A stretch of DNA of 64,000 bases from a virus: positions 1 through 64,000 of IMG/VR virus record IMGVR_UViG_3300028197_000003; one strand, 5' to 3'. This document shows, piece by piece, positions 1,316 through 51,396 of this stretch. The notes beneath the pieces are model-generated. The model worked only from the letters and a program-made list of their open reading frames with translations, did no database searches and was not told where the DNA came from. A program made the translations under genes and the position numbers. Position 1 is the first letter of the stretch; each line of letters starts with the position of its first letter.

Positions 1316-1486
1316 TTAGGGGTAAAAAATTTCTTGTAGGACGCCATTGGAGGAGAGGACGCGATATTTTTTGCCGGACTGGATAGAACGCCCCTTTGCG
1401 GTACGGCAAGCAGATGTCAAGGAGTGTTGTTCACCGTAGCGATGCCACTTGAAGAATTGGTCCTGGTATTCAATGATAAATTTCAT
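1316..1486 (-). CDS. Small basic hypothetical protein (56 aa; below ORF-track cutoff)
   Basis: Hand translation MKFIIEYQDQFFKWHRYGEQHSLTSACRTAKGRSIQSGKKYRVLSSNGVLQEIFYP; overlaps end of upstream SGNH gene by 17 nt. Confidence 0.65.
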   Translation of the reverse strand: MKFIIEYQDQFFKWHRYGEQHSLTSACRTAKGRSIQSGKKYRVLSSNGVLQEIFYP

Positions 1487-2234
1487 TGTAAAGGAGGTTA
1501 GCGAAGAAGTTATGAGATAGTCGAGTGGGATGAAAGGAGTGTGGATTTATGTGTTTATGTTGTTCTAAGAAGCGGATACGGCGTGAGTCTGTCTTTTGAT
1601 ACTGGGAGACGTGGTAAGTATCATTAGTGGGAGTGTAACCGTGATGGGTAGATAGGATGGAACAGAGGTCCCTGTGAGGGCGATCAGAGAATAGGAGACG
1701 GGGGATATGAGTGGGGTATATGTGATGATTGAAGAGATCTACCCAATAGTTACGAATACCGAGTGCATCAAAGTAAGTATTCCAATGAAGCATTTGATTG
1801 GAAAGTTCTTTGAGGACTACGGAGTGATTGTAATGTAAGCGGAGGTGAGTTTTGGAGTCAAAGTTATTTTTACGTAGTTGGTTATCTGCGGAATAACCGT
1901 GACCCCATACTCTACTTACGTAGGTATTACGGTTATTATACCATATTTCATCACGAGCGGTTGAAGTTATACCCCAGAGAACAATGGAGTCTTTCGAGGG
2001 GGGAGAAGTGTTGAAGAACTCAGTGGCCAAGCGGAATTGTTTTTGGTTACTTGAACCATTTTGTGAGAAATTTATGTTAGTTTTATTGAGTTTCTCTGAG
2101 AGTAGGTGACGGTATGAGTATTTTGTGAAGTCTTCAGAGTGTCTTTGGGCGTTGAATTGTTCTCTAGGTTGTCCTGGGGTGTAGCAGAGACCGTGACCCC
2201 ACATCCAGGAGCAACCGAAGGTGATGAGGTTCAT
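1470..2234 (-). CDS. SGNH/GDSL-like hydrolase/acyltransferase family protein
   Basis: N-terminal FGCSW, NFSQNGSSN, WGITSTARDE, C-terminal SFHPTRLSH. Confidence 0.75.
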   Translation of the reverse strand: MNLITFGCSWMWGHGLCYTPGQPREQFNAQRHSEDFTKYSYRHLLSEKLNKTNINFSQNGSSNQKQFRLATEFFNTSPPSKDSIVLWGITSTARDEIWYNNRNTYVSRVWGHGYSADNQLRKNNFDSKTHLRLHYNHSVVLKELSNQMLHWNTYFDALGIRNYWVDLFNHHIYPTHIPRLLFSDRPHRDLCSILSTHHGYTPTNDTYHVSQYQKTDSRRIRFLEQHKHINPHSFHPTRLSHNFFANLLYNEIYH

Positions 2235-2264
2235 AGGCGGTCGGAACCCTCTCTCAAAGGAAGT

Positions 2265-3110
2265 TTATTTGTCACCTGTAGCATCACGATGTTCTTGGGA
2301 GTAGATGGACTGTCTCATATTATTTTTTGTGAGGTAATAGTATGGAGACTTGAATATATCATGCATTGAGTATTCCATTACCATAGCGATACGTTTATGT
2401 GCTTTAGGAGTAGGGTGAAGTTGATTTTTGAAGGTATGAAGTAGATTAGTTTGTACACAATATTTGACACGTTCTGAGGTTTCTTCATTCATCCAACGGA
2501 TACCATATCCTGGAGTTTCCAGATTGGAGTCAGGTGCATGACATTCATTCCATGTTAGTTCAGTTAGCATGGAATTGATTAGGAGGCGACCACCAGGGTG
2601 GATATGATTATCGATACCATCCCACCAATAGTTAGGAATACCTTCAAGTTTTAGAAGTTTATCAAAGACTGCGATTTGATATTTGAATCGTTCATAACAT
2701 ACCCAGAAGTTATGATGTTTTTTATAGTAATCATCAACATCAATTTTGTGCCAATATTCTTGGTTGAACTTTTGTTCATCAGTCATGCCAGGGAATAAAA
2801 CCATTGAGGCAGCTTCAAAATCATCTTTATTTGAAATATGCTGAATTTCAAAGATAATACCAGCGACTTTGATGCCTCTTTTTTTATACTCAGGTAACTT
2901 ACGAATAATTACTTTATTCAAGTGGTATTGGAGAGTATCGTTAGATGCCCGTTTGAAAGATATATTCTTTAGTCGCCAGTTATATTTGTCTGCTAAGATA
3001 TGTGCCCATGATTTTTTAGGGTCATCTTCTGCAAGAGTCCATGCACCACCAATGACGATTAGGACTGGGCGAAGATCATCAATAGGAGTGCCACCATCAA
3101 AGGTCTCCAA
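2265..3110 (-). CDS. SGNH-like protein with nucleophile Ser replaced by Ala
   Basis: IGGAW in place of GxSW; NISFKRASN; C-terminal LHPTPKAH; TTG start uncertain. Confidence 0.65.
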   Translation of the reverse strand: METFDGGTPIDDLRPVLIVIGGAWTLAEDDPKKSWAHILADKYNWRLKNISFKRASNDTLQYHLNKVIIRKLPEYKKRGIKVAGIIFEIQHISNKDDFEAASMVLFPGMTDEQKFNQEYWHKIDVDDYYKKHHNFWVCYERFKYQIAVFDKLLKLEGIPNYWWDGIDNHIHPGGRLLINSMLTELTWNECHAPDSNLETPGYGIRWMNEETSERVKYCVQTNLLHTFKNQLHPTPKAHKRIAMVMEYSMHDIFKSPYYYLTKNNMRQSIYSQEHRDATGDK

Positions 3111-3366
3111 AGTTATCCCTCATTTCTTCACGATGGTTCTTGAGGGATGTGAAGGCACCATCAATAAAACCACGACGATATTCCCAGGTATCACCCCCGG
3201 TTTTACCTCTAGAGGCATTGATGCACTTTGCAGCATCAGGATCATCTTCTCTAAGGTTATTGCATACTAAACCAGCAAGATCAAGATCTTTACCAGGTTT
3301 GCCGGTCCCTCCCCAATAGAGGACTCCCTCCATCCAAGTAGCACCACACTTTTCACATTTCTTCAT
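3097..3366 (-). CDS. Cys-containing hypothetical protein (possible Zn-binding)
   Basis: CEKC plus two further Cys; in operon context; upstream TAAATA box on minus strand. Confidence 0.7.
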   Translation of the reverse strand: MKKCEKCGATWMEGVLYWGGTGKPGKDLDLAGLVCNNLREDDPDAAKCINASRGKTGGDTWEYRRGFIDGAFTSLKNHREEMRDNFGDL

Positions 3367-3391
3367 GGGAACCTCTGTGGATTATAAAAAA

Positions 3392-3398
3392 TATTTAG
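3392..3398 (-). promoter_or_regulatory. T4-like late promoter box (CTAAATA)
   Basis: TATTTAG on + strand, 26 bp upstream of the 3366 start. Confidence 0.45.
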
Positions 3399-4024
3399 AA
3401 GTTAGTATGTTCTATAATGTAGTCAGCAATGATTTTGTGTTGATCTGCATTTGGATGACCTTGACCAGGGGTCTGGATCATCTTCAGAATATCCTCGTAG
3501 ATATGATGCATTTTCGGGTCATCCATTAGGTTTCGCCAATACCCCATATCTTCTAGAGGATCACAATCATTGAATAGTACAATGTAGGGAACTTCATGTA
3601 CTTTAGCAAATTGTTCAAAAAGAAGTAAGTTTTTGTATAAATTCTCTGCCCCATGTGTCTTATTCCATACCCAACGGTAGTAGGAAGACATTGCTAGGGA
3701 ATGTGGTACTTTCTTCTTATTACCTGAACGGAAGTTGAAATTAGAATTATCTTGTCTAAACCTAAAAGGGCAGAAGAGGTGAGCACCATCTTCTGCATAG
3801 AACTCAATACGAGTGGGTACTGTAAGTTGTAAGACTACTGGTTGAACCCCATTAGTCTTTATATGATGTAGTACCCTATTTACGATATAGTCATTGGATG
3901 CCCCACATTGAGACAAATCAGTTGCTTCACACTTGTAGTGTTTTTCAACATGATGAATGAACCGTTCTGCTAGACGGTCCTTCAGTTCATCACCCCATGT
4001 ATACGAACAACCCGCAAATATCAT
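3395..4024 (-). CDS. SGNH-like protein
   Basis: FAGCSYTWG, DLSQCGASN, QLTVPTRIE, C-terminal GHPNADQH. Confidence 0.75.
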   Translation of the reverse strand: MIFAGCSYTWGDELKDRLAERFIHHVEKHYKCEATDLSQCGASNDYIVNRVLHHIKTNGVQPVVLQLTVPTRIEFYAEDGAHLFCPFRFRQDNSNFNFRSGNKKKVPHSLAMSSYYRWVWNKTHGAENLYKNLLLFEQFAKVHEVPYIVLFNDCDPLEDMGYWRNLMDDPKMHHIYEDILKMIQTPGQGHPNADQHKIIADYIIEHTNF

Positions 4025-4395
4025 GCCGAAAGATCAATCATTTTCTGTATGTAGGTCTTTGCTTTTTGTAGGTCATCTTGACGAGAGTTGCCAGATTTCC
4101 TACCTGCACGACTAACATACTTTACAACATTACCAGCAAAGAAGTCGAGTTCTTGATCTGCAATGAAATCCCAGACTTCAATTTGTCCAGTATTGTAATA
4201 ATCGGGATGGTAACCGAGTGCATCAGAAACCGAAAACGTAAGGTGATCTTGTCCTGGTCCCCCAATGCCTCCAACTTGGAATGTGAAAGGGACTTGCTGA
4301 GCTGCTTGTACAGCATCGTCAGGAACTTGGATATCTAATGCGTCACCGCCGTCGAATTGAATGGTGTCGTCTGCCATAGAACTAATGAGCGTCAC
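4021..4395 (-). CDS. DUF3310-like protein (T7 gp1.7 nucleotide-kinase-related family)
   Basis: HPDYY..GQIEVWDFI...FFAGNVVKYVSRAGRK...DDLQKAKTY pattern; start could be the Met at 4377. Confidence 0.7.
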   Translation of the reverse strand: MTLISSMADDTIQFDGGDALDIQVPDDAVQAAQQVPFTFQVGGIGGPGQDHLTFSVSDALGYHPDYYNTGQIEVWDFIADQELDFFAGNVVKYVSRAGRKSGNSRQDDLQKAKTYIQKMIDLSA

Positions 4396-5221
4396 GCCAA
4401 ATAGTATTGTAGGGTTTAGAATCTTTATTAGATTCCTTATATGAAGTATAGCACTTGGTTAGTATAGGGTCAAGGATCTCTGCAATTTGTTGATGTCCTT
4501 GTATAGTTGGGTGAAATGAATATGGATTGAGAACTCCTTTTTTCTTCAAGAAGTCAACACGATCACAATCTGCTTTCCAATCAGAGAAGTGATACTTATC
4601 ATCCATTGGATCCCATCCATTCTTGTATGCCAACTGACTTAGTAAGTCCTGATTGCAGTCATACGGCAATTCATCAAATGGTTTATATACACCACCAGTA
4701 TAATTATTGACATTCAGTGTGTCAAACCATATTTGAGGAACGTTGAGTAACTCAAAATACTTCTGCCAAAAATGGACTTCGTCTGCTAACGTCCGATTGG
4801 CAACACGTTCATAGAAGTGTTGGCGGAAATACTCCTTTGGTCCACACCAATCAGGTCCATGAATATGTTTACGTTTCTCTTGACCGGGTTGAAAGCATGA
4901 AAATGACTTTCCATGATTGAAAAATACTTCCATCCTGTAGATAGAAGTTACCCCCCAGATGACAATAGTGTCATTTAGATCATTCTGATGTAAATATTTT
5001 CTAAGTCTGCGAAACTGACATCCATTAGATGCTCCTCCAGAAGCAATATTGACGTTTTCTAATCCATGCTTTTTTGATAAGATAGTTCTAAACGCATTTT
5101 CCCAGTTGTCATCATCGTTATAACAGCGGTCTTGATACGTTTGTTTGTCCCAAGGATCTTCAGAATCATACCCGGAACCAACACCAGCAATCCAACTGCA
5201 TCCTAAAGTCAGTAATCTCAT
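4382..5221 (-). CDS. SGNH-like protein
   Basis: LGCSW, NIASGGASN, WGVTSIYRME, C-terminal SFHPTIQGH. Confidence 0.75.
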   Translation of the reverse strand: MRLLTLGCSWIAGVGSGYDSEDPWDKQTYQDRCYNDDDNWENAFRTILSKKHGLENVNIASGGASNGCQFRRLRKYLHQNDLNDTIVIWGVTSIYRMEVFFNHGKSFSCFQPGQEKRKHIHGPDWCGPKEYFRQHFYERVANRTLADEVHFWQKYFELLNVPQIWFDTLNVNNYTGGVYKPFDELPYDCNQDLLSQLAYKNGWDPMDDKYHFSDWKADCDRVDFLKKKGVLNPYSFHPTIQGHQQIAEILDPILTKCYTSYKESNKDSKPYNTIWRDAH

Positions 5222-6003
5222 CTGAGTCGGGCAATCTCACCATCAATCTTATCTGCTAACCACTTATGGTACTCTCTAGTGGGATGTTGAGAGAAAGGAT
5301 TGACTTCTTTCTGCTGTTCTAGATATTGAATGCGAGTAGAATCTGAAGAAGAGAACTGCGAGACGTGATATCCATCTGCTTTTGGGGAGAATTGTAAGTC
5401 TGCACACTTCAAAGACATCAGATCCCGCCTAGGTTGATCGTCAAAGAGCATCCTATCGATTGGTTTGGGGTATTCATGATGGTTGAAAGTATCAAACCAA
5501 TAATTTTCAATACCTGCTGCTTCAAAAAAGCGGTTCCAGAAGCGGCATTTGTGTGCAAGTAGTTCTACTTTCTCCTTGTGATCATAGTGATGTGCTAAAT
5601 GTGCCTTGCTATCAAACTTAGCACGCGCCATTTGGGTGTCAGCACCCCATCCATTACCAAAAAGAACACTGATATATTTTCCTTTTTCCTTAGAAAACAC
5701 CTCAGTGCGGGTTGTAACAGTCAATCCCCAGAGCACAACTGTGTTTTTGTACTCACTTGGATCTAATTTACCAAAGTATCTCTCAGCAAACCGAAACTGA
5801 CGCTCATTGGAAGACCCCATTTGAGCGAAATTTTCGTTCGTGCACTCCCACTTATCTGCTAGATGCTTACGAAAGGCATATTTGTCTCCGAACTTTGCGT
5901 CATGATTGTCAGAACCTTGTTTATATTCAATCTTAGTCATCCCTGGAGTATAGTTGGTACCCACACCAAACATCCAAGAGCATCCAAAAGTAACAAGATT
6001 CAT
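5218..6003 (-). CDS. SGNH-like protein (close paralog of 1470-2234)
   Basis: FGCSW, NFAQMGSSN, WGLTVTTRTE, SQHPTREYH; shares FDSKxHLxxHYxH with 1470-2234. Confidence 0.75.
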   Translation of the reverse strand: MNLVTFGCSWMFGVGTNYTPGMTKIEYKQGSDNHDAKFGDKYAFRKHLADKWECTNENFAQMGSSNERQFRFAERYFGKLDPSEYKNTVVLWGLTVTTRTEVFSKEKGKYISVLFGNGWGADTQMARAKFDSKAHLAHHYDHKEKVELLAHKCRFWNRFFEAAGIENYWFDTFNHHEYPKPIDRMLFDDQPRRDLMSLKCADLQFSPKADGYHVSQFSSSDSTRIQYLEQQKEVNPFSQHPTREYHKWLADKIDGEIARLR

Positions 6004-6045
6004 AATAGATCAAATCTCAGAGGTAGCATTGCGGGGATTCTGCCG

Positions 6046-6053
6046 TATTTATC
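6046..6053 (-). promoter_or_regulatory. T4-like late promoter (GATAAATA)
   Basis: TATTTATC on + strand, 43 bp upstream of the SGNH gene starting at 6003. Confidence 0.6.
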
Positions 6054-6106
6054 ATAACATAGTTTGGCCATCATACTCAAAGTCATGACAGTGACTTGAT
6101 AGCACT

Positions 6107-7078
6107 CTATTTTCCCCATGCTTCAGGTAAAGTTTTGAATACGTACTTCCAATCTTTATAAAATTTACCCATATACATTCCTGCAACGTTGATATCTTCT
6201 GGAGTAAGGTCTTCAACGTCGCTTATCCATTGATCTTTTAGGTATTCGTGGTGTGGTGCCTTACTTCCCATGTCTGGGACATAGACATTTTGATGAAGCT
6301 CTGTAATTGGGTACTCAAAAAACTCAGAAATAGCACCAAGTTGCTCTGTTTCTTGTTCAGGATCCCAAAAATCTTCCATCACCACTGGATAAACGTTATC
6401 TTTACCAAAAGCATCGCAATATTTTAGGTAACCAGCGATATAATCGCAATGATCTGGCACTCTATTCTGTTTTAGGTTGTGAAAAAACAATTTTCGGTGA
6501 TTTTGTCTCTTTGCAAAGGCTGCTGCGGTAAAATCTCCGCACCAAGAATCTACAACATTGACTTTTCGGGTCAATAAACTACCAACTTCCGAAAAATAGC
6601 GCCTAACAGGGTCACGAAACTCCATCAAGATCTTGACTTTGAAGTGCTCCTGCAATTTTGGAGCAATTTCAAACAAAAATGGTCGAGGAAGACTGAAATT
6701 TGTGTTGGAGAAGTCGCAAACTCCCTCATATTCGTCTTTGATGTTTTCCCAATGCCCTAAAAAGTATTCAATGTACGCATCGAGTGACTTTGGATTTGCC
6801 ATAAGCATTTCCAAAGACGTATTTTTGACAAATCGGTTACTTTTTGATAAATATTCGCCATACGGATGATCGTTTGGTCTTTTTTGATAACTAGCACCGT
6901 TCCACATTAGATCAAAGGCACGTTCATGCTCCTCATCTTTCTTACAAAGTGCTTTGAGGTACCAATTTTCTTTTTTATGCCCCATATGAACATATTGGTT
7001 GTCCATCGTCACTGTGTAGTGCATTGGACTTGTTGCTGACCAGCCAACGCCGGGATTTAGAAGCAGTGTTGGTTTCAT
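6107..7078 (-). CDS. Sulfotransferase-fold (P-loop-like) protein
   Basis: GVGWSATSP (5'-PSB-like), KKENWY, DFSN, FRDPVRRYFS (3'-PB-like). Confidence 0.7.
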   Translation of the reverse strand: MKPTLLLNPGVGWSATSPMHYTVTMDNQYVHMGHKKENWYLKALCKKDEEHERAFDLMWNGASYQKRPNDHPYGEYLSKSNRFVKNTSLEMLMANPKSLDAYIEYFLGHWENIKDEYEGVCDFSNTNFSLPRPFLFEIAPKLQEHFKVKILMEFRDPVRRYFSEVGSLLTRKVNVVDSWCGDFTAAAFAKRQNHRKLFFHNLKQNRVPDHCDYIAGYLKYCDAFGKDNVYPVVMEDFWDPEQETEQLGAISEFFEYPITELHQNVYVPDMGSKAPHHEYLKDQWISDVEDLTPEDINVAGMYMGKFYKDWKYVFKTLPEAWGK

Positions 7079-7110
7079 GGTAAACTATATAAATTCAGGA
7101 GGTGGGTCGT

Positions 7111-7269
7111 ATGCCGTATGATGTCTATCTAGACAAGAAAATCATCTTTGAATCTCTATCAAAAGAAAAAGCAGAAGGAATTCGAGATACCATGCAAAAT
7201 ATGATTATGGCAGGAATCAACACTACTTATAAAGTTGAAGATATCCGAATTGAACCTTGTAAAGGATGA
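7111..7269 (+). CDS. Small hypothetical protein (52 aa; not in ORF track)
   Basis: AGGAGG at 7097-7102; MPYDVYLDKKIIFESLSKEKAEGIRDTMQNMIMAG...; TGA overlaps next ATG (ATGA). Confidence 0.75.
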   Translation: MPYDVYLDKKIIFESLSKEKAEGIRDTMQNMIMAGINTTYKVEDIRIEPCKG

Positions 7270-8156
7270 AACCTACATTATTTTTGAACGTAGGAACTGG
7301 ATGGTCAGGGACTACTCCATTATACTACACTTTGGGTTGGTATAACAACTATTGTCATGCTGGACACCGTAAAGAAAAAGGATATCTGTGGTTGCTTCAG
7401 TTACAGAAAGATAATAACACGTTTGAGCGAGTAAAGTTCTACAAAAAGTTTTTTGGACCATCCAGGCAGTCAATTACGACTCGGAAACCCAAAATCTTCA
7501 CTCATGAATCTAAGTACGTTGCTGGAAAATGGACTGAGGAAGAAATTGAGTATTTTTGGGGTCCCCCGTTTGAATTGAGAAAGTATGTTCAATATTATTT
7601 GAAGCATTGGGATAATATCAAAGATGATTATAAAGCAGTTGCTGATTTTAGCAACCCCAATGGATATTGCGATGCAGAGTACATAAAATATCTTGCATAT
7701 CATTTACAGAGTTATTTTGACGTAAAAATCCACATGATTTTCCGAGATCCCATTCGTAGACTGTGGTCTTGTCGTCAAGCTCAGAAAAGAGACAAACCTG
7801 TTGAGCATTTTCTAAAGTCTGGCATGGATTTTGACTATATCGATTTCTATAACAAATGGGCAGATGCATTTGGCAATGATAATACCCATGTAACAATCAT
7901 GGAAGACTTTTGGGCAGGAGACACTTCTTTGCTGTCAAGTTTTATTGGTATGGATATCAAGGAGACTCATGTCAATGCATATGTCCCAGATCTCGGTCCC
8001 TGTGCTCCACATATCCAATATTTGAACGATCAGTGGGAATCTGACGTAATGCATATGCCAGATCATGTCAAGGATAAAGCAAAGATTATGATGGAACCTT
8101 GCTATTCTCATTGGAAGCAATATTTTGGCAAATTGCCCGAATCTTGGGGAAAGTGA
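7266..8156 (+). CDS. Sulfotransferase-fold protein
   Basis: GTGWSGTTP, RKEKGY, DFSNPN, FRDPIRRLWS, C-terminal DQWESD...LPESWG shared with paralogs. Confidence 0.7.
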   Translation: MKPTLFLNVGTGWSGTTPLYYTLGWYNNYCHAGHRKEKGYLWLLQLQKDNNTFERVKFYKKFFGPSRQSITTRKPKIFTHESKYVAGKWTEEEIEYFWGPPFELRKYVQYYLKHWDNIKDDYKAVADFSNPNGYCDAEYIKYLAYHLQSYFDVKIHMIFRDPIRRLWSCRQAQKRDKPVEHFLKSGMDFDYIDFYNKWADAFGNDNTHVTIMEDFWAGDTSLLSSFIGMDIKETHVNAYVPDLGPCAPHIQYLNDQWESDVMHMPDHVKDKAKIMMEPCYSHWKQYFGKLPESWGK

Positions 8157-8186
8157 TATTATACATAGGAAGCATTTGAGGTTGTT

Positions 8187-8324
8187 ATGCGCCGACTCTG
8201 GTATTGGATTGTAGGTGAATGGAATCTTCGTAAAATCCGCAAAATGGATCCGTTTATCTACGAAGCAGATCAGATGGATGAGATGGATGATCCTTTTGCT
8301 GATGATGGGGACGATAAAGGATGA
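8187..8324 (+). CDS. Small protein with Trp/basic N-half, DPFIYE motif and acidic tail (45 aa; not in ORF track)
   Basis: Hand translation MRRLWYWIVGEWNLRKIRKMDPFIYEADQMDEMDDPFADDGDDKG; ATGA overlap with carbamoyltransferase. Confidence 0.65.
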   Translation: MRRLWYWIVGEWNLRKIRKMDPFIYEADQMDEMDDPFADDGDDKG

Positions 8325-9700
8325 TTGGATTTTCTGAGGGGTTTCACGACGCCGGACTGGCGGTTGTTCGTAATAAAAAGATTATCTTTGCTGCACATAG
8401 CGAAAGATACTCTAAGAAAAAGCATGACAAACGATTATGTGATGAACTTGCCTTTTATGGCGAATCACTCAACACAGGTGATGACGTAATCGCTTTTTAT
8501 GAGAAACAGTTCCCAAAACGTGTCAGGCAATTTTTCGCTGGACAAAACCACTGGCGTAAACGAAGACATCTAGCGTTACGACCAAATATCGGTTTTCCTC
8601 ATCATCAATCACATGCTGCAGCAGCATTCCAGACTTCATGCTTTGAAGAAGCAGCATGTGTTGTTGTAGATAGTATTGGTGAATGGGATTGTAGTTCTGT
8701 ATGGACTGCAAAGATGGTTGATGGTAATGCTGTCTATAAAAAACGTTGGTCCCGTAGATATCCAAAGTCTATAGGTCTTTGGTACTCTGCTTTGACTGGA
8801 TGGGCAGGTCTTCGTCCTTTAGACGAGGAATATATCTTTATGGGTATGGCAGCGTTTGGTAAACCCCATTATGTTGAAGAGGTAAGAAAACTCTTGTCTC
8901 AAAACAACCATCGTGGTTGCCATTTAGATATTGAGAGTAAGGAAGACGTTGCTGCTAGTGCACAGGTCGTTCTAGAGGAAGAGTTAGATAAGATTTTTGA
9001 TATTGCTCTTAGATACAGCGATAATGTCTGTTATGGGGGTGGTGTTGCATTGAATTGTGTTGCTAATACCAAACTACGTAAAAGGTGCAACTTATGGATC
9101 ATGCCCAACCCAGGTGACGCTGGTGGGGCACTTGGTGCTGCTCTATTGGCATCAGGTAAGAAAGTAGAGTTCACTCCTTACACTGGGTATAAGATCGACC
9201 GTAAAGTTGATCCTGAAGCAGTTGTAGATGTTCTTTTGAAGGATGGCATCTGTGGTATAGCAAATGGTAAGGCAGAGTATGGTCCTCGTGCTTTAGGTAA
9301 CCGTTCTTTGATTGCGGACCCCCGATCATTTGCAAATAAGGATCGAGTCAACGAAATCAAGAAGAGACAGAAGTTTAGACCATTTGCACCCGCAATTCTG
9401 GAGGAGCATTGTCAAGATTACTTTGATATGCCAGAGCACTCTCGATACATGTCTTATGTCTATCAATGTAAGCGTCCAGACGAGATTCCTGCCTGCGTGC
9501 ACGTCGATAACAGTGCAAGAGTACAAACGGTGCCCGAGACTAGTGAAAGCGTCTTCAGAGCGATTCTAGAGGCATGGTACAAGCGTACAGGTTGCCCTGT
9601 ACTTCTAAATACATCATTGAACATTCGTGGCATGCCAATGGTCAATGAATGGTCTGATGCACTTGATTTCTCTAACAAGTATAACGTTACTGTATTATGA
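8321..9700 (+). CDS. Carbamoyltransferase, NodU/CmcH family
   Basis: HDAG, SERYSKKKHD, HHQSHAAAAF, GGVALNCVAN, PGDAGGALGAA, GPRALGNRS, RPFAP, HVDNSARVQTV, LLNTSLN. Confidence 0.92.
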   Translation: MIGFSEGFHDAGLAVVRNKKIIFAAHSERYSKKKHDKRLCDELAFYGESLNTGDDVIAFYEKQFPKRVRQFFAGQNHWRKRRHLALRPNIGFPHHQSHAAAAFQTSCFEEAACVVVDSIGEWDCSSVWTAKMVDGNAVYKKRWSRRYPKSIGLWYSALTGWAGLRPLDEEYIFMGMAAFGKPHYVEEVRKLLSQNNHRGCHLDIESKEDVAASAQVVLEEELDKIFDIALRYSDNVCYGGGVALNCVANTKLRKRCNLWIMPNPGDAGGALGAALLASGKKVEFTPYTGYKIDRKVDPEAVVDVLLKDGICGIANGKAEYGPRALGNRSLIADPRSFANKDRVNEIKKRQKFRPFAPAILEEHCQDYFDMPEHSRYMSYVYQCKRPDEIPACVHVDNSARVQTVPETSESVFRAILEAWYKRTGCPVLLNTSLNIRGMPMVNEWSDALDFSNKYNVTVL

Positions 9701-41474: not shown

Positions 41475-41487
41475 AAGGAAATCCAAA

Positions 41488-43913: not shown

Positions 43914-43940
43914 AAAAAGGCAGGCGTTATGCCTGCCTAT
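43911..43940 (-). terminator. Intrinsic terminator for minus-strand dctP-like gene
   Basis: AGGCAGGC-GTTAT-GCCTGCCT stem with A7 on its left (U-tract on minus strand). Confidence 0.75.
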
Positions 43941-43957
43941 AAAATCAAAACAGAAGT

Positions 43958-44914
43958 TTACTCTTCTGCATCGGTACCGTAGGCACGAATACGATCAGCA
44001 ACTCCCGCAGGAAGAGAAATCGTATCATACAATCCAGCAGTAGCTTGCTTGAATGCAGTACGCTCATCAGTAGTCATTTTGTTGACGGTAATTCCTTCAT
44101 TCGTGCACTTGACCTCAAGGTCAAACATCTCATCAACAGACCATTCTTGTTCCGCATCTGCGGTAACAATTGCTGCGTTTGCAATTTTGCCACGAAGTCC
44201 AGAATCTTTATCCAAAGACTTCCAAAAATCTTTCCGACAAACAATAGCTGCAACATTCATAGAATGTCGTGTATCATTGAGAGTCTTCATGACATCATCG
44301 CCTTCATTGGCGAAGAACTGAGTGTAGTTAGCATCTGCACCAGCAACGGTGCCATCTGTGACGGCTTGTTTGATCTGCTCTACTTCAAGAACAACAGGAG
44401 TAGCACCAATTGCTTCAAAAGTTTTTTTAGCAATTTCGTTGTCGTCGCATCGAATGGAAACCCCTAACAGATCATCGGTTGTATCGATTTCTTTAGTAGC
44501 AGGAATCATATTGTATCCACCAGCAAAAGTATATCCCAGACCCCTAACTACAGTATCTTCACGTCCCCATAGTCCTTTCAAAAGCTCAATTCCAACTTGA
44601 CCCGCTAAGGCGTTACTTGCCTCAACATAACTACTAAACAAATAAGGCATATCAAGAACTCTCAAATCTGAGTTGAGTTCAGCCAACTTGGACGTATATA
44701 TCTGACACATATCCAACTTACCCTCTCTAATGAGAGTAATAAAATCATTCCTGGTAACTGCTACACCTTCATTGTACTTCGTAGCAAACTCTGATAGTGT
44801 AAGAATTTCAACTTCAAATTCCCCAGGAGCAAGGATCTCAATTTCAGTAGCAAACTTCTCAGCAGTACGACGGAAAAGTTCAATAGGTTCATGTACCCAA
44901 CGTACTTTTTTCAT
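43958..44914 (-). CDS. dctP: TRAP transporter substrate-binding protein-like (DctP family), no signal peptide
   Basis: GKLDM, LDMPYLF, DDLLGVSIR, FEAIGATPV, GTVAGAD pattern; no DctQ/DctM nearby. Confidence 0.75.
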   Translation of the reverse strand: MKKVRWVHEPIELFRRTAEKFATEIEILAPGEFEVEILTLSEFATKYNEGVAVTRNDFITLIREGKLDMCQIYTSKLAELNSDLRVLDMPYLFSSYVEASNALAGQVGIELLKGLWGREDTVVRGLGYTFAGGYNMIPATKEIDTTDDLLGVSIRCDDNEIAKKTFEAIGATPVVLEVEQIKQAVTDGTVAGADANYTQFFANEGDDVMKTLNDTRHSMNVAAIVCRKDFWKSLDKDSGLRGKIANAAIVTADAEQEWSVDEMFDLEVKCTNEGITVNKMTTDERTAFKQATAGLYDTISLPAGVADRIRAYGTDAEE

Positions 44915-44941
44915 GCCTTATTGAGTTATGGTTCTATACTA

Positions 44942-44949
44942 TATTTATT
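44942..44949 (-). promoter_or_regulatory. T4-like late promoter (AATAAATA)
   Basis: TATTTATT on + strand, 28 bp upstream of the dctP start. Confidence 0.6.
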
Positions 44950-44991
44950 GTAATGTAACTGTTCCTAAATTATTATGATGCTTGTGAAAGG

Positions 44992-46038
44992 ATGAAACCT
45001 AAATTTATTTTGTTTCTTGGAGTAGGTTGGTCAGCAACAACTCCACTGTTTGCATCTATCAAAGAACATTTACTCTACGGCATTGAGAAGGAATGGTTTT
45101 ATCCCCAGATGTTGTTTGAAAGGAATTTTTACAAGTTCACAAATGATCATTTATGGAGAAAATCTTTAGATGAACTCAAGGTAAGAATAAGAAAATTTAG
45201 AGAGGGTGAGATACAGTTTCATCATGTGTCGAAGCACGATGTGTCAGAAAAAGCATTGAGTATCATAGAGCATCATGATCCTACTATCGAGAGATATATT
45301 GATTTTTACAAATGTCTCTGGGAAGAAGGGGTAAGTTACGATAAGAAGGCACTTGCAGATTTTTCAAATACAAATAGTGAATGTTTCTTTGTTGATAAAG
45401 GAATTCGATGGTATAGAAACTTTGTATCAGAATTGGATAAACATTTTGATGTTATTCAAGTTGCAATTTTTAGAGATCCAGTTAGGAGGTTTTTCTCAAA
45501 CGAGGTTTGGTTATATGACAACGCCGAGCATCTAGACATTGACACGGGTGGTCAAACTTTAGATCAGTGGTTTGAACATCGTATAGAACATCAGATTCCT
45601 TATGCCAAACTTATCAAGACTGCCATGTCTTGTGGTAAGACTGAATTTTTTGTTATGGAAGACGTATGGGAATCTGATACTGAAACCCAAATTGCTCGAC
45701 TACAAAAACTTTTTGCTGTCGATAGAGTAGAATTATATGACAATGCTTACTGTCCTGATAGAGGATCTAAAGCAATTAGATATAGTAACCTAATAGATCA
45801 ATGGACTAGTGATTCATTTGATATGCCAGATGATTTATATTATAAACTCAAAAAAATGATGAGTTTTCAGTACGAAGATTGGATAAAAATGTATGGCAAA
45901 TTGCCTGAAACTTGGGGCAGTCCTGCAGACTATAAGAAGAATCAGAGTTTACCGATAGGGAGACTACAGCACAAAGAGAACTTTGTTTATCCAGAGTTTT
46001 ATGAAGAGATTGATGGTCAAAATTATTGTCATAACTAG
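44992..46038 (+). CDS. Sulfotransferase-fold protein
   Basis: GVGWSATTP, EKEWFY, DFSNTN, FRDPVRRFFS, YCPDRG, DQWTSD, LPETWG. Confidence 0.72.
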   Translation: MKPKFILFLGVGWSATTPLFASIKEHLLYGIEKEWFYPQMLFERNFYKFTNDHLWRKSLDELKVRIRKFREGEIQFHHVSKHDVSEKALSIIEHHDPTIERYIDFYKCLWEEGVSYDKKALADFSNTNSECFFVDKGIRWYRNFVSELDKHFDVIQVAIFRDPVRRFFSNEVWLYDNAEHLDIDTGGQTLDQWFEHRIEHQIPYAKLIKTAMSCGKTEFFVMEDVWESDTETQIARLQKLFAVDRVELYDNAYCPDRGSKAIRYSNLIDQWTSDSFDMPDDLYYKLKKMMSFQYEDWIKMYGKLPETWGSPADYKKNQSLPIGRLQHKENFVYPEFYEEIDGQNYCHN

Positions 46039-46058
46039 TAAAGTGATTGTATAAAAAA

Positions 46059-47189
46059 ATGAAACCTAAATTTATACTATTTGTTGGTTATGGATGGGCA
46101 GCAACAACTCCATTATTCAATTCCCTAAAAGAACATCTACTTTTTGGTACTCAAAAAGAGATGCATTATTTTGAATTGATCTATAAAAAACAATATTACA
46201 AAGATCCTAAAAACTGGGGGGAAGGAGCCAAAGACCGTAGGGGATGGGAGAAAACTTTTGAATTACATTTAGCACGTGTCAAACAGACCAGGTATGGTGA
46301 AGATAATTATGATCAAAATATTTTTGTGCCAGATAAAGCATTTGATATTCTTGAAGATCCTAATACTTGTATAGAAAACTATATCAATTTTTATAAATCC
46401 ATTTGGGAAAAACATGCAGATGAGGGCAAGATACTTGCAGATTGGTCAAACTCAAATATTCTTCCGATAAACGATAAAACAGTAGGACTGCCTTTGTACA
46501 AAGAGTTTATACAAAGACTACAAGAACATTTTGATGTTACTCAAGTAGGAATTTTTAGAGATCCAGTTAGACGACTATTTTCAGAACATGTTTGGCATTG
46601 GGACAATGCAGATCTCCTTAGAATTGATAAAGGTTTACATCATACCGTAGAAACTTACTTAGAATTATATGCAAAAAAAGTTTTACCTTACAGTGATATT
46701 ATAGATGTCACTAGAAAATATGGTAAAACTGAATTTTTTGTTATGGAAGATATATGGGAGAACGATACTAAAAATCAACTTAGTCGATTAGAAAATCTTA
46801 TTGGTAAAGATATAAATTTATATGATAATGCTTACTCTCCTGATAGAGGATCTAAAGCAATTAGATATACTCTTTTGATTGATCAATGGAATAGTGATTC
46901 ATTTGATATGCCAGATGATTTATATTATAAACTAAAAAAAATACTTCAGTATCAATATGATTATTGGCCTAAAGTATTTGGTTGTCTTCCTGAGCAGTGG
47001 GGAACCCCTATAGACTACAAGAAAAATCAAAGTTTACCTATAGGAAGAATTGAACACGAAGGTAATTTTGTTCCTGAAGAAAATCGTGAACTAATTGATG
47101 GTGAATATTATTGGAAAGATTTCGATAATACATTTCTGCTTGATGGAATGGATGATTTTTTTACTAAATTTGAGGTTGTAAGTAAGTGA
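46059..47189 (+). CDS. Sulfotransferase-fold protein (tandem paralog)
   Basis: MKPKF start at 46059; GYGWAATTP, QKEMHYF, DWSNSN, FRDPVRRLFS, DQWNSD. Confidence 0.72.
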   Translation: MKPKFILFVGYGWAATTPLFNSLKEHLLFGTQKEMHYFELIYKKQYYKDPKNWGEGAKDRRGWEKTFELHLARVKQTRYGEDNYDQNIFVPDKAFDILEDPNTCIENYINFYKSIWEKHADEGKILADWSNSNILPINDKTVGLPLYKEFIQRLQEHFDVTQVGIFRDPVRRLFSEHVWHWDNADLLRIDKGLHHTVETYLELYAKKVLPYSDIIDVTRKYGKTEFFVMEDIWENDTKNQLSRLENLIGKDINLYDNAYSPDRGSKAIRYTLLIDQWNSDSFDMPDDLYYKLKKILQYQYDYWPKVFGCLPEQWGTPIDYKKNQSLPIGRIEHEGNFVPEENRELIDGEYYWKDFDNTFLLDGMDDFFTKFEVVSK

Positions 47190-47870
47190 TCAACAACACT
47201 TAGATGGTTTTTCTGGTTGTGGTCCTGTAGGTCCTTCAGTAAAAGGATCTAATGGAGCAGGAATTCCAGTTTTATTGCAGTCATCCAAAGGATTGTTTGC
47301 AACATATTGAATATACTTGTCGTTAGCATCTCGTTTCAAAATTTCATCTACACGTTTGTCATACCATGCAACTGGGATACCAATGTCTAGGTGTTTTAGA
47401 TACTCTTCTTTATAGAGATATAAAAGTTCGTAACTAAGAAAGGTTGGGTTGGGGAATTTTGACATCTGATCCAAGAAATACTTGGTGGTTAGTTCGCCCC
47501 TCAACCGCTGTTGTTGATTACGAAGTATGTTTTGATCACGACCAATTACAACTATTTTAGTTTTGATCCCCATATTTTCGGCAGACTTGCAAAACTGCAA
47601 TACGTTTGGACACCAATGGGTCCCTTTTTCTTTGATGCCGAGGGGGACACTAATAGAGGTAAAGTAATATTCCGACTGAGACCAATCGAAAGATTGCAGT
47701 TTATTGGGGTCTCTCCAATATTCTGCAAAAGGTTCTGCAAATCTATGTGCTTCCCAATAATTGTTCAGCAAAGATTTCCACCCATAGACATCATCGTGCA
47801 ATGAAAAGATTTTTGACCATAGATGGTTTCCCGATCCTTGAGGCCCAGTTAGTACAACGAGTGTCTTCAT
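47190..47870 (-). CDS. Degenerate P-loop protein (GPQGSGNH family), paralog 2
   Basis: TGPQGSGNHLW, EPFAEYW, RDQNIL..QQQR; clear paralog of 42140-42775. Confidence 0.75.
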   Translation of the reverse strand: MKTLVVLTGPQGSGNHLWSKIFSLHDDVYGWKSLLNNYWEAHRFAEPFAEYWRDPNKLQSFDWSQSEYYFTSISVPLGIKEKGTHWCPNVLQFCKSAENMGIKTKIVVIGRDQNILRNQQQRLRGELTTKYFLDQMSKFPNPTFLSYELLYLYKEEYLKHLDIGIPVAWYDKRVDEILKRDANDKYIQYVANNPLDDCNKTGIPAPLDPFTEGPTGPQPEKPSKCC

Positions 47871-47891
47871 AATATAGTAACCTTCATACTA

Positions 47892-47900: not shown

Positions 47901-47901
47901 C

Positions 47902-47972: not shown

Positions 47973-49133
47973 ATGTCATCTCCAAATATTAGGGTCAAAC
48001 GCTCAGCGATTGCTGGCAAGGTCCCACACTATCCAAACAGCCTAGAACTTGGCGAATTTGCGATCAACACAGCGGACGGCAAAGTCTTTATTGCCGCTGG
48101 TGTTGGAGCAGGTGTTACTGTACGCGAAGTTGGTATAAGCACCGGCAAGATTCTTAGTGGTATCGCTACGATTACCACGCTTGAAGCAACAAATTTTAGT
48201 GTAAGTAATACTATCGTTGGTATTTCCAGCGGTGCGAACAAGGTAGATACTGCAACTGACGGTGGTAACCAATGGCACCACGTTGGATTTTTAGATAATA
48301 GAACTGGATATCAAAAAATAAAGACTAACGGTCTTACTTACAACCCTAACACTGGCAAACTCTATGCTGGTATTGGTAGTTTTGGTAAGGTTAGTGGAGA
48401 AGCAACGGTTTCTCAACTAGTAGTCACTGGAGTAACCACTGTATCCACGATCAATGCTGATGCATTTGTTGGTGATGGATCTGCTCTTACTAACATTGGT
48501 GCTGCTACATCTATTTCATCTCAAGTTACAACCGCTACTCAAGGTCAGACCGCATTTACATCACCTGGTGCTCACAATGATGGAACTAAACAACTTACTG
48601 TAGAAGCATATATCAACGGTGTTCGCCAACGTAAAGATACTGACTTCAGTGTCTCATCTACAAGCACAGTAACCCTTAGTAGTGGTGCCAAGGTAGGTGA
48701 TGAGGTTCAAATTCAAGTTCATTATGGACATACTCTCGATCAAGAATCTTTTACTGCAACACAAGGTCAAACAGTATTTACAATCTCAGGTGATTTTGCT
48801 GCACAAAAAAACTTCAAAGTATTTTTGAATGGTATAAAATTACGTAAAACTACAGACTATACTACCGGTGCATCTATTGTCCTTGTGACCGGATGTAAAG
48901 TGGGAGACGAAGTTGATATATGTGGAGATCTTTCAGAAGATCAATATACTGCAACTGAAGGACAAACAACATTTATTCCAAGCGATACAAATATTTCTAC
49001 TAAAAACGCTCAAGTATATCTAAATGGGGTTTTACTACGAGCAGTAGATTGGTCATTTGGAGATACATCTATATCAATTACTAATGGCACAACTGTAGGT
49101 GACGAGATAGATGTCGTTGTAAGACGTAACTAA
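47973..49133 (+). CDS. Short fibre-like virion protein (occupies the slot before gp13)
   Basis: IRVKRS...LELGEFAINTADGKVF N-terminus; three AT.GQT.F...NG...VGDE modules. Confidence 0.75.
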   Translation: MSSPNIRVKRSAIAGKVPHYPNSLELGEFAINTADGKVFIAAGVGAGVTVREVGISTGKILSGIATITTLEATNFSVSNTIVGISSGANKVDTATDGGNQWHHVGFLDNRTGYQKIKTNGLTYNPNTGKLYAGIGSFGKVSGEATVSQLVVTGVTTVSTINADAFVGDGSALTNIGAATSISSQVTTATQGQTAFTSPGAHNDGTKQLTVEAYINGVRQRKDTDFSVSSTSTVTLSSGAKVGDEVQIQVHYGHTLDQESFTATQGQTVFTISGDFAAQKNFKVFLNGIKLRKTTDYTTGASIVLVTGCKVGDEVDICGDLSEDQYTATEGQTTFIPSDTNISTKNAQVYLNGVLLRAVDWSFGDTSISITNGTTVGDEIDVVVRRN

Positions 49134-49156
49134 ATAGAAAAAAAGTCTTGGAATAA

Positions 49157-50002
49157 ATGGCGAACCCATCTACAAGACAGGAGTTAGTCGGTTACGCTAG
49201 GCGTCAACTAGGTGCTCCAGTCCTTGAAATAAACGTTGCTGATGAGCAAATTGAAGATCTGATGGATGATGCCATTCAGGTTTATCAAAATCGCCATATG
49301 GATGGCGTTGAATTGATGTACTTGAAGCATAAGATCACGCAGGACTTCCTTGATGCTACTCGCGCTAGGGCAGAAGATAAGTCAACTGGTATCACTACCA
49401 GTACAGGCACAGCAAATATTACTGGAATTGGCGTTACCACCTTTAGTTTTGAGGAGAACCAGAATTTCATCCAGGTTCCTGACGCGGTTATTGGGGTCGA
49501 AAGAATTTTCAAATTGGACAATCGTCTAATTTCGACGAACATGTTCAACATCAATTATCAGTTGATGCTGAATGATGTGTATTTTTTCAGTTCAATGGAA
49601 CTGATGGGATATACAATGACTAAAAGATATTTGGAAGACCTAGATCATATTTTACATCCTGAGAAAGCAATTCGTTTCAATCGTCGGCAGAACAGACTTT
49701 ATCTGGACGTTGATGGCAACAGTATGCAGGAAAATGATTACATCATTATCCGTTGCTATCGGGTTTTAGATCCCAACGATTTCCCAAAAGTATATAACGA
49801 TATCTTCCTGAAACGTTACTTTACTTCTCTCCTCAAAAAACAGTGGGGACAAAACCTAATCAAGTTCCAAGGTGTAAAATTGCCAGGTGGTGTTGAACTG
49901 AATGGTAGACAGATTTATGAAGATGCGGTTGGAGAAATTCAAGTATTAGAAGATAAGATGGCAAATGAGTATGAACTTCCTCCGCTTGATCTGATTGGAT
50001 AA
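49157..50002 (+). CDS. gp13: Neck protein
   Basis: RQLGAPVLEINVADEQIEDL, KQWGQNLIKF.GVKLPGGV.LNG. Confidence 0.93.
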   Translation: MANPSTRQELVGYARRQLGAPVLEINVADEQIEDLMDDAIQVYQNRHMDGVELMYLKHKITQDFLDATRARAEDKSTGITTSTGTANITGIGVTTFSFEENQNFIQVPDAVIGVERIFKLDNRLISTNMFNINYQLMLNDVYFFSSMELMGYTMTKRYLEDLDHILHPEKAIRFNRRQNRLYLDVDGNSMQENDYIIIRCYRVLDPNDFPKVYNDIFLKRYFTSLLKKQWGQNLIKFQGVKLPGGVELNGRQIYEDAVGEIQVLEDKMANEYELPPLDLIG

Positions 50003-51396
50003 TGGCACTAAATCCCTTCTTTCAACAAGGCACCCCTGGTGAACAGGACCTCGTACAAGATCTGATAAATGAACAGATCCAAATGTATGGAGTGGAATTT
50101 ATTTACCTGCCTCGTATTTTTGTCAATACTAAGACTATTATGAGGGAGGTAACTTCTTCTAAGTTTACCAAATCATTTCCTATTGAAGGGTATATTGAGT
50201 CTTATGAAGGTTTTGATGCTGGATATAATCTACTAACAAAATTTGGAGTTCGTACTAACGCAGAGATGAAAATTGTCATCTCTCAAACTCGTTATCTAAA
50301 CTATATCACACCTTTGATGGTTGGTGCTCGTGGATTGACAAATGCACCCGTACGTCCTTATGAAGGAGATCTTATGTATTTCCCATACAGGGATCTACTG
50401 ATGGAGATCAAGTATGTTGATGACGTTAGTAACTTCTATCAACTACGTAAGAACTATACGTACACTCTGACGGTTGAACCGTTTGAGTATGAGGATGAAG
50501 TCATCCAGACTGGAGTCAATGTGATTGATGATGACTTCAAGACTGCTGGTTACAATGCTACTTTTGTTTTACTAGATGTTGGAAGCACTGCATCAGCAAC
50601 TGTAGGACTTGCCACTGGTATTCGTTATATCGATCTATTGAATGGTGGTAACGGTTGGAGTGCTGCCCCTAGAGTCAAAATTTCTCCTCCTGTAGGAGGG
50701 GGCACTACAGCAACTGCAGTTGCCATCACTAGCACTACAGGCACAAGTGCTTTCCGATCAACTTATATTAGTGACATCTTTATTACTAATCCTGGTGTAG
50801 GTTACACTGCAGTTCCTACTATTCAATTCATCTCTGAGGATGGTCTAGGATCTGGTGCAATTGCAAAAGTTGCTATCTCCACCAGTGGAGGCATTAGTAA
50901 TGTTATTGTTAGTAATGTTGGATCAGATTATGTACAGGCGGATCCTCCAGATATTACTTTCAATGCACCTCCTTCTGGGGGGCATATTGCCAAGGCACTT
51001 GCAGTCGTAGATACATTGGGTCGTTTGAATGCGATTCGTATCACTGATGCTGGTTCTGGATACACTTCCAACCCTACAATTACAGTAGGAGCAGCAGGCA
51101 CAGTTGGTGTTGGTACTTTCAATTATGGAGAAGTTATAAAAGGTCAATCCAGTCTCAGCACTGCGTTTGTTACTACTTGGAATGCTCCAACTCTTACTCT
51201 CAAAGCACGCAATCTGAGTGGTAACTTTAGTGTTGGCGAACTTATCGTGGACAATGAAGGAAGTGCGTATCGTCTAAATACCATCGATTATAATGATGAC
51301 GACTTCGCTCCCAGTTACAACTCGGGAGATACTATTCAGAACGAAGCAGATAGCATCTTAGATTTTACAGCGAAAAACCCCTTTGGTGAAGTGTAA
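50002..51396 (+). CDS. gp14: Neck protein with C-terminal beta-repeat extension
   Basis: ALNPFF, QDLINEQIQMYG, P.EGDL.YFP, ends NPFGEV. Confidence 0.9.
   Translation: MALNPFFQQGTPGEQDLVQDLINEQIQMYGVEFIYLPRIFVNTKTIMREVTSSKFTKSFPIEGYIESYEGFDAGYNLLTKFGVRTNAEMKIVISQTRYLNYITPLMVGARGLTNAPVRPYEGDLMYFPYRDLLMEIKYVDDVSNFYQLRKNYTYTLTVEPFEYEDEVIQTGVNVIDDDFKTAGYNATFVLLDVGSTASATVGLATGIRYIDLLNGGNGWSAAPRVKISPPVGGGTTATAVAITSTTGTSAFRSTYISDIFITNPGVGYTAVPTIQFISEDGLGSGAIAKVAISTSGGISNVIVSNVGSDYVQADPPDITFNAPPSGGHIAKALAVVDTLGRLNAIRITDAGSGYTSNPTITVGAAGTVGVGTFNYGEVIKGQSSLSTAFVTTWNAPTLTLKARNLSGNFSVGELIVDNEGSAYRLNTIDYNDDDFAPSYNSGDTIQNEADSILDFTAKNPFGEV

Follow-up and report, generated by a model that had tools for sequence, protein, structure and literature searches.

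Glycosyltransferases of mycobacteriophages are said to decorate virion proteins of the phages that encode them (Freeman et al. 2023, cited in PMC12801897 and PMC11256854). Capsid and tail-tube proteins are the reported targets; to our knowledge, no short sequon common to many proteins has been described for mycobacteriophage virion glycosylation. A stretch of 64,000 nucleotides (nt) from an uncultured T4-like cyanophage (positions 1 to 64,000 of IMG/VR record IMGVR_UViG_3300028197_000003; hereafter the window) was analysed here for a short amino acid motif, G-[IV]-[GST]-[ST], in its baseplate, fibre and neck proteins and for a gene at 11846-12610, directly beside the baseplate genes, that encodes a predicted GT-A glycosyltransferase (GT). 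In contrast to the mycobacteriophage system, the capsid, tube and sheath proteins of the window are without the motif and the putative targets are baseplate, fibres and neck; hosts and GT families also differ. No description of this motif or of cyanophage virion glycosylation was found in literature searches.

General O-glycosylation in Bacteroidetes follows the sequon D-(S/T)-(A/I/L/V/M/T). The O-glycosylation of Tannerella is an example of such a system (PMC6120980). Bacterial sequon systems resemble the arrangement proposed here in that a short, degenerate hydroxyl-acceptor sequon is spread over many unrelated surface proteins, and differ in that a periplasmic oligosaccharyltransferase and lipid-linked glycans are used, whereas a soluble cytoplasmic GT-A and another sequon are proposed here. 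Protein A197 of Sulfolobus turreted icosahedral virus (STIV) is essential, and its presumed function is cytoplasmic glycosylation of the STIV capsid protein (PMC10551542). Like the window GT it is a minimal, single-domain viral GT-A enzyme with a DxD motif, but STIV is an archaeal virus, the proposed target is the major capsid protein and not the tail, and the acceptor is putative, with no known acceptor motif. LH3, COLGALT1, the polypeptide GalNAc-transferases (ppGalNAc-T) and R699 are like the window GT in fold and transfer sugar to protein side-chain hydroxyls by a DxD-metal mechanism; LH3, COLGALT1 and ppGalNAc-T differ in acting in the secretory pathway or on hydroxylysine, and likeness in fold does not give the acceptor. 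A related sequence is found in the capping loops of trimeric beta-helix fibres, which read V-G-(G/N)-small-x-x-P-x-x-x-L in Bdellovibrio MAT proteins, the T5 L-shaped fibre and the K1F endosialidase (PMC10769870); a VGIGT-like core is shared with the motif, which occurs here without the conserved flanks.

Motif content of virion proteins

The window is the structural region of a 192,351-bp genome, and cyanophage terminase genes are its best nucleotide matches (72-75% identity). The motif was scored as G-[IV]-[GST]-[ST], with 1000 residue shuffles per protein as the null. Baseplate, fibre and neck proteins of the window contained 43 copies against about 8 expected (counts for each protein are given in Table 1), and none was present in the gp17 terminase, the gp18 sheath, the tube, the gp20 portal or the gp23 capsid protein. 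The initial annotation of the window, made by eye, had noted the recurrence of the motif in structural proteins and its absence from gp17, gp20 and gp23; both observations held, as did every position quoted (residues 1462 and 1475 of the gp7-like protein, 121 and 126 of the 955-residue baseplate protein, 20 of gp8, 795 of the VrlC-like protein, and 78 and 92 of gp13). Outside the window, a scan of the phage's own genome gave only three further enriched proteins, all fibre-like and located at 165-176 kb. A fibre-like protein at 171191-173527 carried 7 copies against 0.9 expected, and another at 173865-175733 carried 6 against 1.2.

Since the motif had been picked by eye, unbiased controls were added. 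Among all exact 4-mers of the structural set, GITT, TGIG, GIST, GIGS and GVTT were among the most enriched. When the four residue classes were arranged in all 24 orders, the stated order was the highest (5.1x) and the non-overlapping orders reached 1.1-1.9x. In nine related GT-carrying phages, 382 copies were observed against 104 expected under a first-order Markov null, and proteins of GT-lacking phages matched for composition gave a ratio of 0.7x. Composition alone, the condition under which the annotation would have failed, was ruled out by the shuffle, Markov and permutation controls. The 43 sites of the window are encoded by 40 distinct 12-nt sequences, which places the signal at the protein level, and a cause at the DNA level was rejected because the codons of the sites are diverse. 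The motif is a real signal of the outer virion proteins, carried at the protein level and dependent on residue order.

For a position scan, the nine phages were pooled and a single position was varied each time. At position 1 only glycine was enriched (4.8x; other residues were near 1, the highest being cysteine with 2.0x on 4 observations). Position 2 accepted isoleucine (7.0x), valine (2.9x), leucine (2.6x) and phenylalanine (2.0x), position 3 glycine (5.4x), serine (4.9x) and threonine (4.1x), and at position 4 only threonine (6.2x), serine (3.2x) and tyrosine (2.4x), all of them hydroxyl residues, reached 2x or more. In a context logo of 280 sites the flanks held less than 0.2 bit, except for a small or beta-branched residue at position -1, and the spacing between copies had no period. 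Information-poor flanks and aperiodic spacing point to a short self-contained word and not to the fingerprint of a long repeat; a repeat-domain explanation was rejected on the same grounds. The beta-helix capping loop, written as VG[IVL]G[TSN]xxP, fitted 2 of the 382 sites of the GT-carrying T4-like phages and none in the window, and a recurring domain ending in G-x-G-T-H covered 10 of the 382. Our tentative reading is that selection has favoured G-[IVL]-[GST]-[TS], as a short linear motif, on the exposed proteins of tail end and neck in a single large clade of T4-like cyanophages; the case for it is substantial and still short of making it probable.

Identification of the glycosyltransferase

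The assignment of 11846-12610 to the GT-A glycosyltransferases, already suggested by the initial annotation, was borne out by a fold model, a DxD motif and a profile match. The protein was matched by 2194 cluster representatives. It gave no Pfam match of its own at E ≤ 0.01; PF00535 was matched by 19 of 81 relatives, and related GT-A families were matched by others. A profile built from the 81 relatives reached STIV A197 (PDB 2C0N), a GT-A enzyme, with E 8e-8, the only solved structure reached by a sequence profile. An AlphaFold2 model was obtained with a predicted local distance difference test score (pLDDT) of 92.7 and a predicted TM-score (pTM) of 0.87, and its best Foldseek matches were LH3, Mnn9, A197, mimivirus R699, COLGALT1 and ppGalNAc-T, with a Foldseek probability of 1.00 for LH3, Mnn9, A197, COLGALT1 and GalNAc-T. 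For the protein-glycosylating enzymes LH3, COLGALT1, ppGalNAc-T and R699, E was 5e-9 to 1e-5 and TM-scores were only about 0.5 at 9-16% identity. The DxD motif is D112-S-D114 (within W-I-D-S-D); D112 does not vary among the 81 relatives, conservation of D114 is at least 90%, and E223-D224 and H248 are also conserved. No long hydrophobic run was found in the sequence, so that a soluble cytoplasmic enzyme is likely. Taken together, the product is a predicted GT-A glycosyltransferase.

By tblastn, the GT was found in 105 phage records, with 61-80% identity in other T4-like cyanophages and 51-53% in B23 and in the S-TIM5 group; identity was 75-96% in the best 80 of at least 597 IMG/VR stretches. 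The baseplate is less conserved than the GT: the 955-residue protein has about 32% identity to other phages (tblastn), and gp8 varies between 38 and 51% within the GT-carrying clade. The GT gene lies directly upstream of gp25 in P-SSM2, S-SSM7, ACG-2014f, S-8S53, S-CAM9, Sf-CH5 and B23. The GT copy of P-TIM68 (58617-59513) has an in-frame insert of about 46 residues between residues 128 and 129 of the window protein. Genes for 2-oxoglutarate (2OG)-Fe(II)/phytanoyl-CoA dioxygenases flank the GT in P-SSM2 (231-2598) and S-8S53 (2976-3536), a neighbourhood reminiscent of the way hydroxylase and GT are paired in collagen LH3, to which the GT is structurally closest. In the literature, the gene is listed among those for host cell-wall modification (PMC12801897).

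Distant relatives (38-42% identity) occur on three metagenome contigs (L159, L160 and L162) next to genes for PI3/PI4 kinase, ATG8, ubiquitin hydrolase, SET-domain proteins and rhodopsin; with these eukaryote-like neighbours the contigs look like giant viruses, and members of the GT family may occur in phages, giant viruses and an archaeal virus alike. The distant relatives P0011, P0444, P0450 and P0018 were rejected as replicates for the motif comparison: they lie on short contigs or on contigs with eukaryote-like neighbours, and tail genes are missing from these. In a 39-kb temperate phage (L100, MW202496.1), a 26%-identical relative at 2367-3011 directly follows the scaffold and major capsid genes and so stands within the structural module.

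Comparison between phages

The ratio of observed to expected motif copies was calculated over all open reading frames of at least 400 amino acids in the baseplate locus (at least 300 for the last five loci), and presence or absence of the GT was determined in 15 whole records and by tblastn for the remaining phages. The 23 T4-like phages compared fell into two groups without exception: 11 with the GT had ratios of 3.76-6.65 (window 4.45; P-TIM68 4.31; S-SKS1 4.13; S-SSM7 6.65; P-SSM2 3.89; ACG-2014f 3.76; S-8S53 5.85; S-CAM9 5.85; Sf-CH5 6.41; B23 5.2; Sf-FS3 5.27) and 12 without it had ratios of 0.27-1.14 (P-HM1 0.77; S-RIM8 0.93; S-RIM2 0.53; P-SSM7 0.54; ACG-2014d 0.95; Syn33 0.48; P-TIM40 1.03; S-IOM18 0.57; S-CAM3 0.27; S-CRM01 1.14; S-WAM2 0.92; Methylophilales phage Melnitz 0.97). 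Over seven whole genomes the ratio was 3.2-4.4x with the GT and 0.75-1.04x without it, and over 43 core orthologues of the same fold it was 2.4-4.0x against 1.0-1.8x. The expected co-variation of motif abundance with glycosyltransferase and tailoring genes was seen for the GT, as one contrast between a clade and the phages outside it, and not for the SGNH-like and sulfotransferase-like families described below.

Positions of the sites were compared between orthologues. In gp13, 8 sites were found in three GT-carrying genomes and 0 in four GT-lacking genomes, for which about 0.2 were expected; they lie in a hypervariable loop, where S-CAM9 has an insert of about 90 residues with five copies and where GT-lacking phages have shorter, Thr/Ser-rich loops without Gly-Ile. 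The S-CAM9 insert (gp13 at 27819-28940 of L014) resembles a small domain of the gp7-like and 955-residue proteins. In gp8, seven site columns were patchily distributed among sublineages, often in loops varying by insertion and deletion, and none was common to all 11 phages; in the VrlC-like protein, 28 columns were counted over the clade, most of them occupied in one or two phages. Sites have thus been gained and lost within the clade while their density was kept, which suggests a clade-wide cause rather than inherited elements of the fold. For the 955-residue protein, a comparison of 42 homologues showed conservation of the sites at residues 330, 388, 418, 800 and 832; a fold search with its model gave no meaningful match. 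The placement of the motif in variable loops or inserts, predicted beforehand, was found in gp13 and gp8; in the model of the 955-residue protein, the sites begin beta strands.

Interpretation of the motif

Tentatively, the motif may be read as the O-glycosylation acceptor site of the conserved cytoplasmic GT-A encoded at 11846-12610, a reading that we consider well worth pursuing and yet somewhat less probable than its denial. The sequon proposed in the initial annotation is partly supported by the hydroxyl residue at the end of the motif, its location on outer proteins and in variable loops, and its co-occurrence with the GT; what falls short is that a single phylogenetic event underlies the comparison. 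Judging from a promoter-like box and its position, the GT would probably be a late product, made along with the baseplate proteins encoded just downstream. It would take a host nucleotide-sugar and add the sugar to the hydroxyl of the Thr or Ser at position 4 of freshly synthesized gp7-like, gp8, fibre, gp13 and gp14 proteins, either ahead of assembly or in its course, and baseplate, fibres and neck would be decorated with sugar as a result. The action of the GT on these proteins, the Thr/Ser acceptor and the timing are what we infer. If linked to this process, the island genes (sulfotransferase-like, SGNH-like, carbamoyltransferase and others) would tailor the glycan only in the narrow lineage of this phage.

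Several findings weigh against the acceptor reading. In a tree of gp8, all 11 GT carriers group together in a single clade (100/99 support), and three lineages without the GT fall outside; with the carriers monophyletic, the split of 11 to 12 is one evolutionary contrast and not 23 independent ones, and the co-occurrence of GT and motif could be plain co-inheritance. S-TIM5, the only independent GT lineage (51% identity), has 18 motif copies against 4.2 expected in four fibre proteins, and of the 19 sites in the five proteins annotated as its fibres, 11 belong to the known VGIGTxxP capping loop; as its sites are mostly this loop, S-TIM5 is no clean replicate and was rejected as an independent one. 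The temperate phage MW202496 was likewise rejected, its 26%-identical GT being accompanied by no motif excess. In the 955-residue protein, GIGT at residue 330 is present in 40 of 42 homologues, as expected of a fold element, and in the AlphaFold model (mean pLDDT 66.5) the glycine lies mostly at a loop-to-strand boundary, with Ile, x and Thr starting the strand; Ile and Thr are on the same strand face, so that a role in packing fits as well as one as acceptor. Glycosylation of these proteins is something we infer, and the substrates of the GT could instead be precursors of the host envelope, as is assumed in the literature (PMC12801897).

The strongest competitor is purely structural: G-[IV]-x-[TS] would be a favoured element at turns, or at the passage from loop to strand, in the beta-rich domains of the baseplate and fibre proteins of this clade, and the GT, having another substrate, would share nothing with it except ancestry. 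We regard this as unlikely, though deserving serious weight. The single gain on the gp8 tree, the glycines at strand starts and the invariant sites of the 955-residue family are all as it predicts, the small share of sites in the G-x-G-T-H-ending domain has been counted for it, and VGIGTxxP, as a known capping loop of trimeric beta-helices (PMC10769870), explains the S-TIM5 fibres. That loop nevertheless fits next to none of the sites in the T4-like phages, flanks are uninformative and spacing aperiodic, and the excess is spread over unrelated proteins and appears in orthologues of identical fold (gp13, gp8 and the VrlC-like protein) only with the GT; the sites are located in variable loops and are gained and lost between closely related lineages, and clear enrichment at position 4 is confined to hydroxyl residues. 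An artefact of composition, low complexity or post hoc choice of the motif has a vanishingly small probability: G, I, V, S and T are abundant in the proteins and the non-overlapping class permutations are mildly high, but shuffles, the Markov null, the 4-mer ranking, the permutation control and the composition-matched proteins of GT-lacking phages refute it.

It is improbable that the motif is read by some other clade-specific factor, such as a hydroxylase, a kinase, an acyltransferase, an assembly chaperone or an attachment partner of the same baseplate module. The dioxygenase genes beside the GT in P-SSM2 and S-8S53 would suit this explanation, and a single phylogenetic contrast cannot separate genes gained on the same branch; on the other side, GT neighbours vary among phages, and the GT was the one gene checked, present in 11 of 11 motif-rich phages and in 0 of 12 others. 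A similarly low probability is given to the full model of the initial annotation, in which the two islands build and tailor a glycan attached at the motif. The islands stand on either side of the baseplate and fibre genes, TAAATA is found 23-60 nt upstream of several island genes, a sulfotransferase fold is supported and the carbamoyltransferase is confirmed, and a close relative has island 1 in the same arrangement; none of the other motif-rich phages, however, has the island families, family thresholds are not reached for the SGNH, methyltransferase and di-iron calls, the sulfotransferase-like proteins have no Lys in the 5'-phosphosulfate-binding (5'-PSB) loop, and nothing links the islands to a protein-bound glycan rather than to the host surface or a small molecule. 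The combined version, in which the GT-A reads a G-[IVL]-x-[TS] sequon and sugar-coats the tail parts and the glycan is further sulfated, acylated or carbamoylated by the islands in this lineage, is equally doubtful and would surprise us.

Should the motif prove to be the acceptor site of the GT, it would constitute the first phage system in which O-glycosylation of the virion is directed by a sequon and would offer the first simple rule for predicting from sequence where phage particles are modified, and a gene listed under host cell-wall modification (PMC12801897) would receive a new role. T4-like cyanophages are among the most abundant viruses of the ocean, and their baseplates and fibres decide which Prochlorococcus and Synechococcus strains die; a sugar coat on these parts would alter the understanding of adsorption, host range, particle stability and decay.

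Gene layout and islands

From 5' to 3', the window contains island 1 (1470-11789), the 254-residue GT, gp25, gp6, the gp7-like protein of 2747 residues, the 955-residue baseplate protein, gp8, the VrlC-like protein of 2379 residues, two small genes, the fibre of 1430 residues, island 2 (40941-47870), a fibre-like protein of 386 residues, and gp13 to gp23 in numerical order (Table 1). The gene of the 1430-residue fibre has a GC content of about 0.50 against about 0.40 in its surroundings. Its product contains an internal repeat, 'YVLGGGAGA...NVSGI[GS]', three times, with 3 of its motif copies inside the repeat, and no relative was found for it in the PDB by sequence.

Table 1. Coordinates of genes in the window, with motif copies observed and expected from residue shuffles
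Feature	Position	Strand	Evidence or remark	Motif copies (observed; expected)
SGNH-like paralogue, island 1 part 1	1470-2234	-	sub-threshold match	
SGNH-like paralogue, island 1 part 1	2265-3110	-	sub-threshold match	
Gene of island 1 part 1	3097-3366	-	phrog_484	
Gene of island 1 part 1	3395-4024	-		
DUF3310 protein, island 1 part 1	4021-4395	-		
SGNH-like paralogue, island 1 part 1	4382-5221	-	sub-threshold match	
SGNH-like paralogue, island 1 part 1	5218-6003	-	sub-threshold match	
Sulfotransferase-fold paralogue, island 1	6107-7078	-		
Sulfotransferase-fold paralogue, island 1	7266-8156	+		
NodU/CmcH-type carbamoyltransferase	8321-9700	+	PF02543, E 1e-36; PF16861, E 1e-52	
280-residue protein of no assigned family	9697-10539	+	paired with 3395-4024	
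Radical SAM enzyme	10536-11789	+	PF04055, Cys box	
Predicted GT-A fold glycosyltransferase ('T4-GC 102', phrog_1574)	11846-12610	+	DxD, profile, model; TAAATA box 59 nt upstream	
gp25 baseplate wedge protein	12880-13284	+		0
gp6 baseplate wedge protein	13284-15380	+	no enrichment	1; 0.4
gp7-like baseplate protein, 2747 residues	15386-23629	+		15; 1.9
955-residue baseplate protein	23629-26496	+	phrog_2885	10; 0.64
gp8	26527-28056	+		3; 0.38
VrlC-like structural protein	28061-35200	+	individually non-significant	3; 1.3
Fibre protein, 1430 residues, GC-rich	36380-40672	+	individually non-significant	4; 2.5
Methyltransferase candidate, island 2	40941-41474		sub-threshold	
Ferritin-like/di-iron candidate, island 2	41455-42162		sub-threshold	
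Paralogue pair, first member, island 2	42140-42775	-		
Sulfotransferase-fold paralogue, island 2	42732-43913			
DctP-type solute-binding protein, island 2	43958-44914	-	PF03480, E 2.5e-32	
Sulfotransferase-fold paralogue, island 2	44992-46038			
Sulfotransferase-fold paralogue, island 2	46047-47189			
Paralogue pair, second member, island 2	47190-47870	-		
386-residue fibre-like structural protein	47973-49133	+		4; 0.58
gp13 neck protein	49157-50002	+	both copies within hypervariable loop	2; 0.04
gp14 neck protein	50002-51396	+	individually non-significant	1; 0.34

The proposal that the islands build or tailor a glycan on the motif was not supported. P-TIM68 and S-SKS1 lack both the SGNH-like and the sulfotransferase-like family and their homologous baseplate proteins are equally motif-rich (P-HM1 had no excess), and P-SSM2, S-SSM7 and six further GT carriers have the motif excess without either family. 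Being missing from ten other motif-rich phages, the island families cannot be the machinery that is conserved with the motif; they may have been added in this lineage only, or may have nothing to do with the motif. By tblastn against 50,697 phage records, the SGNH-like family gave no match and the sulfotransferase-like family matched only one uncultured single-virus genome, AG-345-D19. The arrangement of island 1 is kept in a close relative (L019) whose GT is 96% identical.

The individual enzyme calls of the initial annotation fared unequally. The carbamoyltransferase was confirmed, as both the Carbam_trans_N and the Carbam_trans_C domain were matched, and so was the radical SAM enzyme (PF04055, 35.7 bits against a cut-off of 29.5, with C136xxxC140xxC143 inside the match); a second Cys box in this protein, C75xxxC79xxC82, may bind an auxiliary cluster. 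The five sulfotransferase-fold paralogues had no direct Pfam match, and a profile built from them reached PF00685-annotated proteins (E 1e-42 to 5e-37), in agreement with a lead from a protein atlas. All five contain the 3'-phosphate-binding motif RDP[VI]RRxxS, and their 5'-PSB loop reads G-x-G-W-S-A-T-T-P, with T-T kept and the usual Lys absent, which suggests an atypical donor or chemistry. For the six SGNH-like proteins (the four paralogues and the pair 3395-4024 and 9697-10539), G-C-S-W, S-S-N and H-P-T motifs were found but family thresholds were not reached: the Pfam GDSL match was below the cut-off (19.1 against 23.6 bits in one search, E 0.11 in another), and among 72 homologues none belonged to an SGNH/GDSL Pfam family and one matched PF19547 only. 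Profile searches of the PDB with the sulfotransferase-like and SGNH-like families gave nothing. Matches for the methyltransferase and di-iron candidates were weak (E 0.003-0.1) and below family thresholds. Of the 17 island proteins scanned against PHROGs, 16 had no match and only 3097-3366 was assigned, to a family of unknown function; weak Pfam matches to Ntox5 and Cas3_HD were treated as noise.

TAAATA boxes, taken in the initial annotation as late boxes, are present at the places given there; for the full T4 late box, TATAAATA, occurrences were no more frequent than expected by chance. Sixteen gene starts are preceded by TAAATA at a distance of 23-70 nt, among them 3366(-), 6003(-), 11846, 42732 and 44914(-). 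Late expression of the island genes is possible, on a weak basis given the chance-level frequency of the full box. The gene for the DctP/TRAP-type periplasmic solute-binding protein (43958-44914, minus strand) stands inside the tail-gene region and has an ATAAATA box 34 nt upstream.

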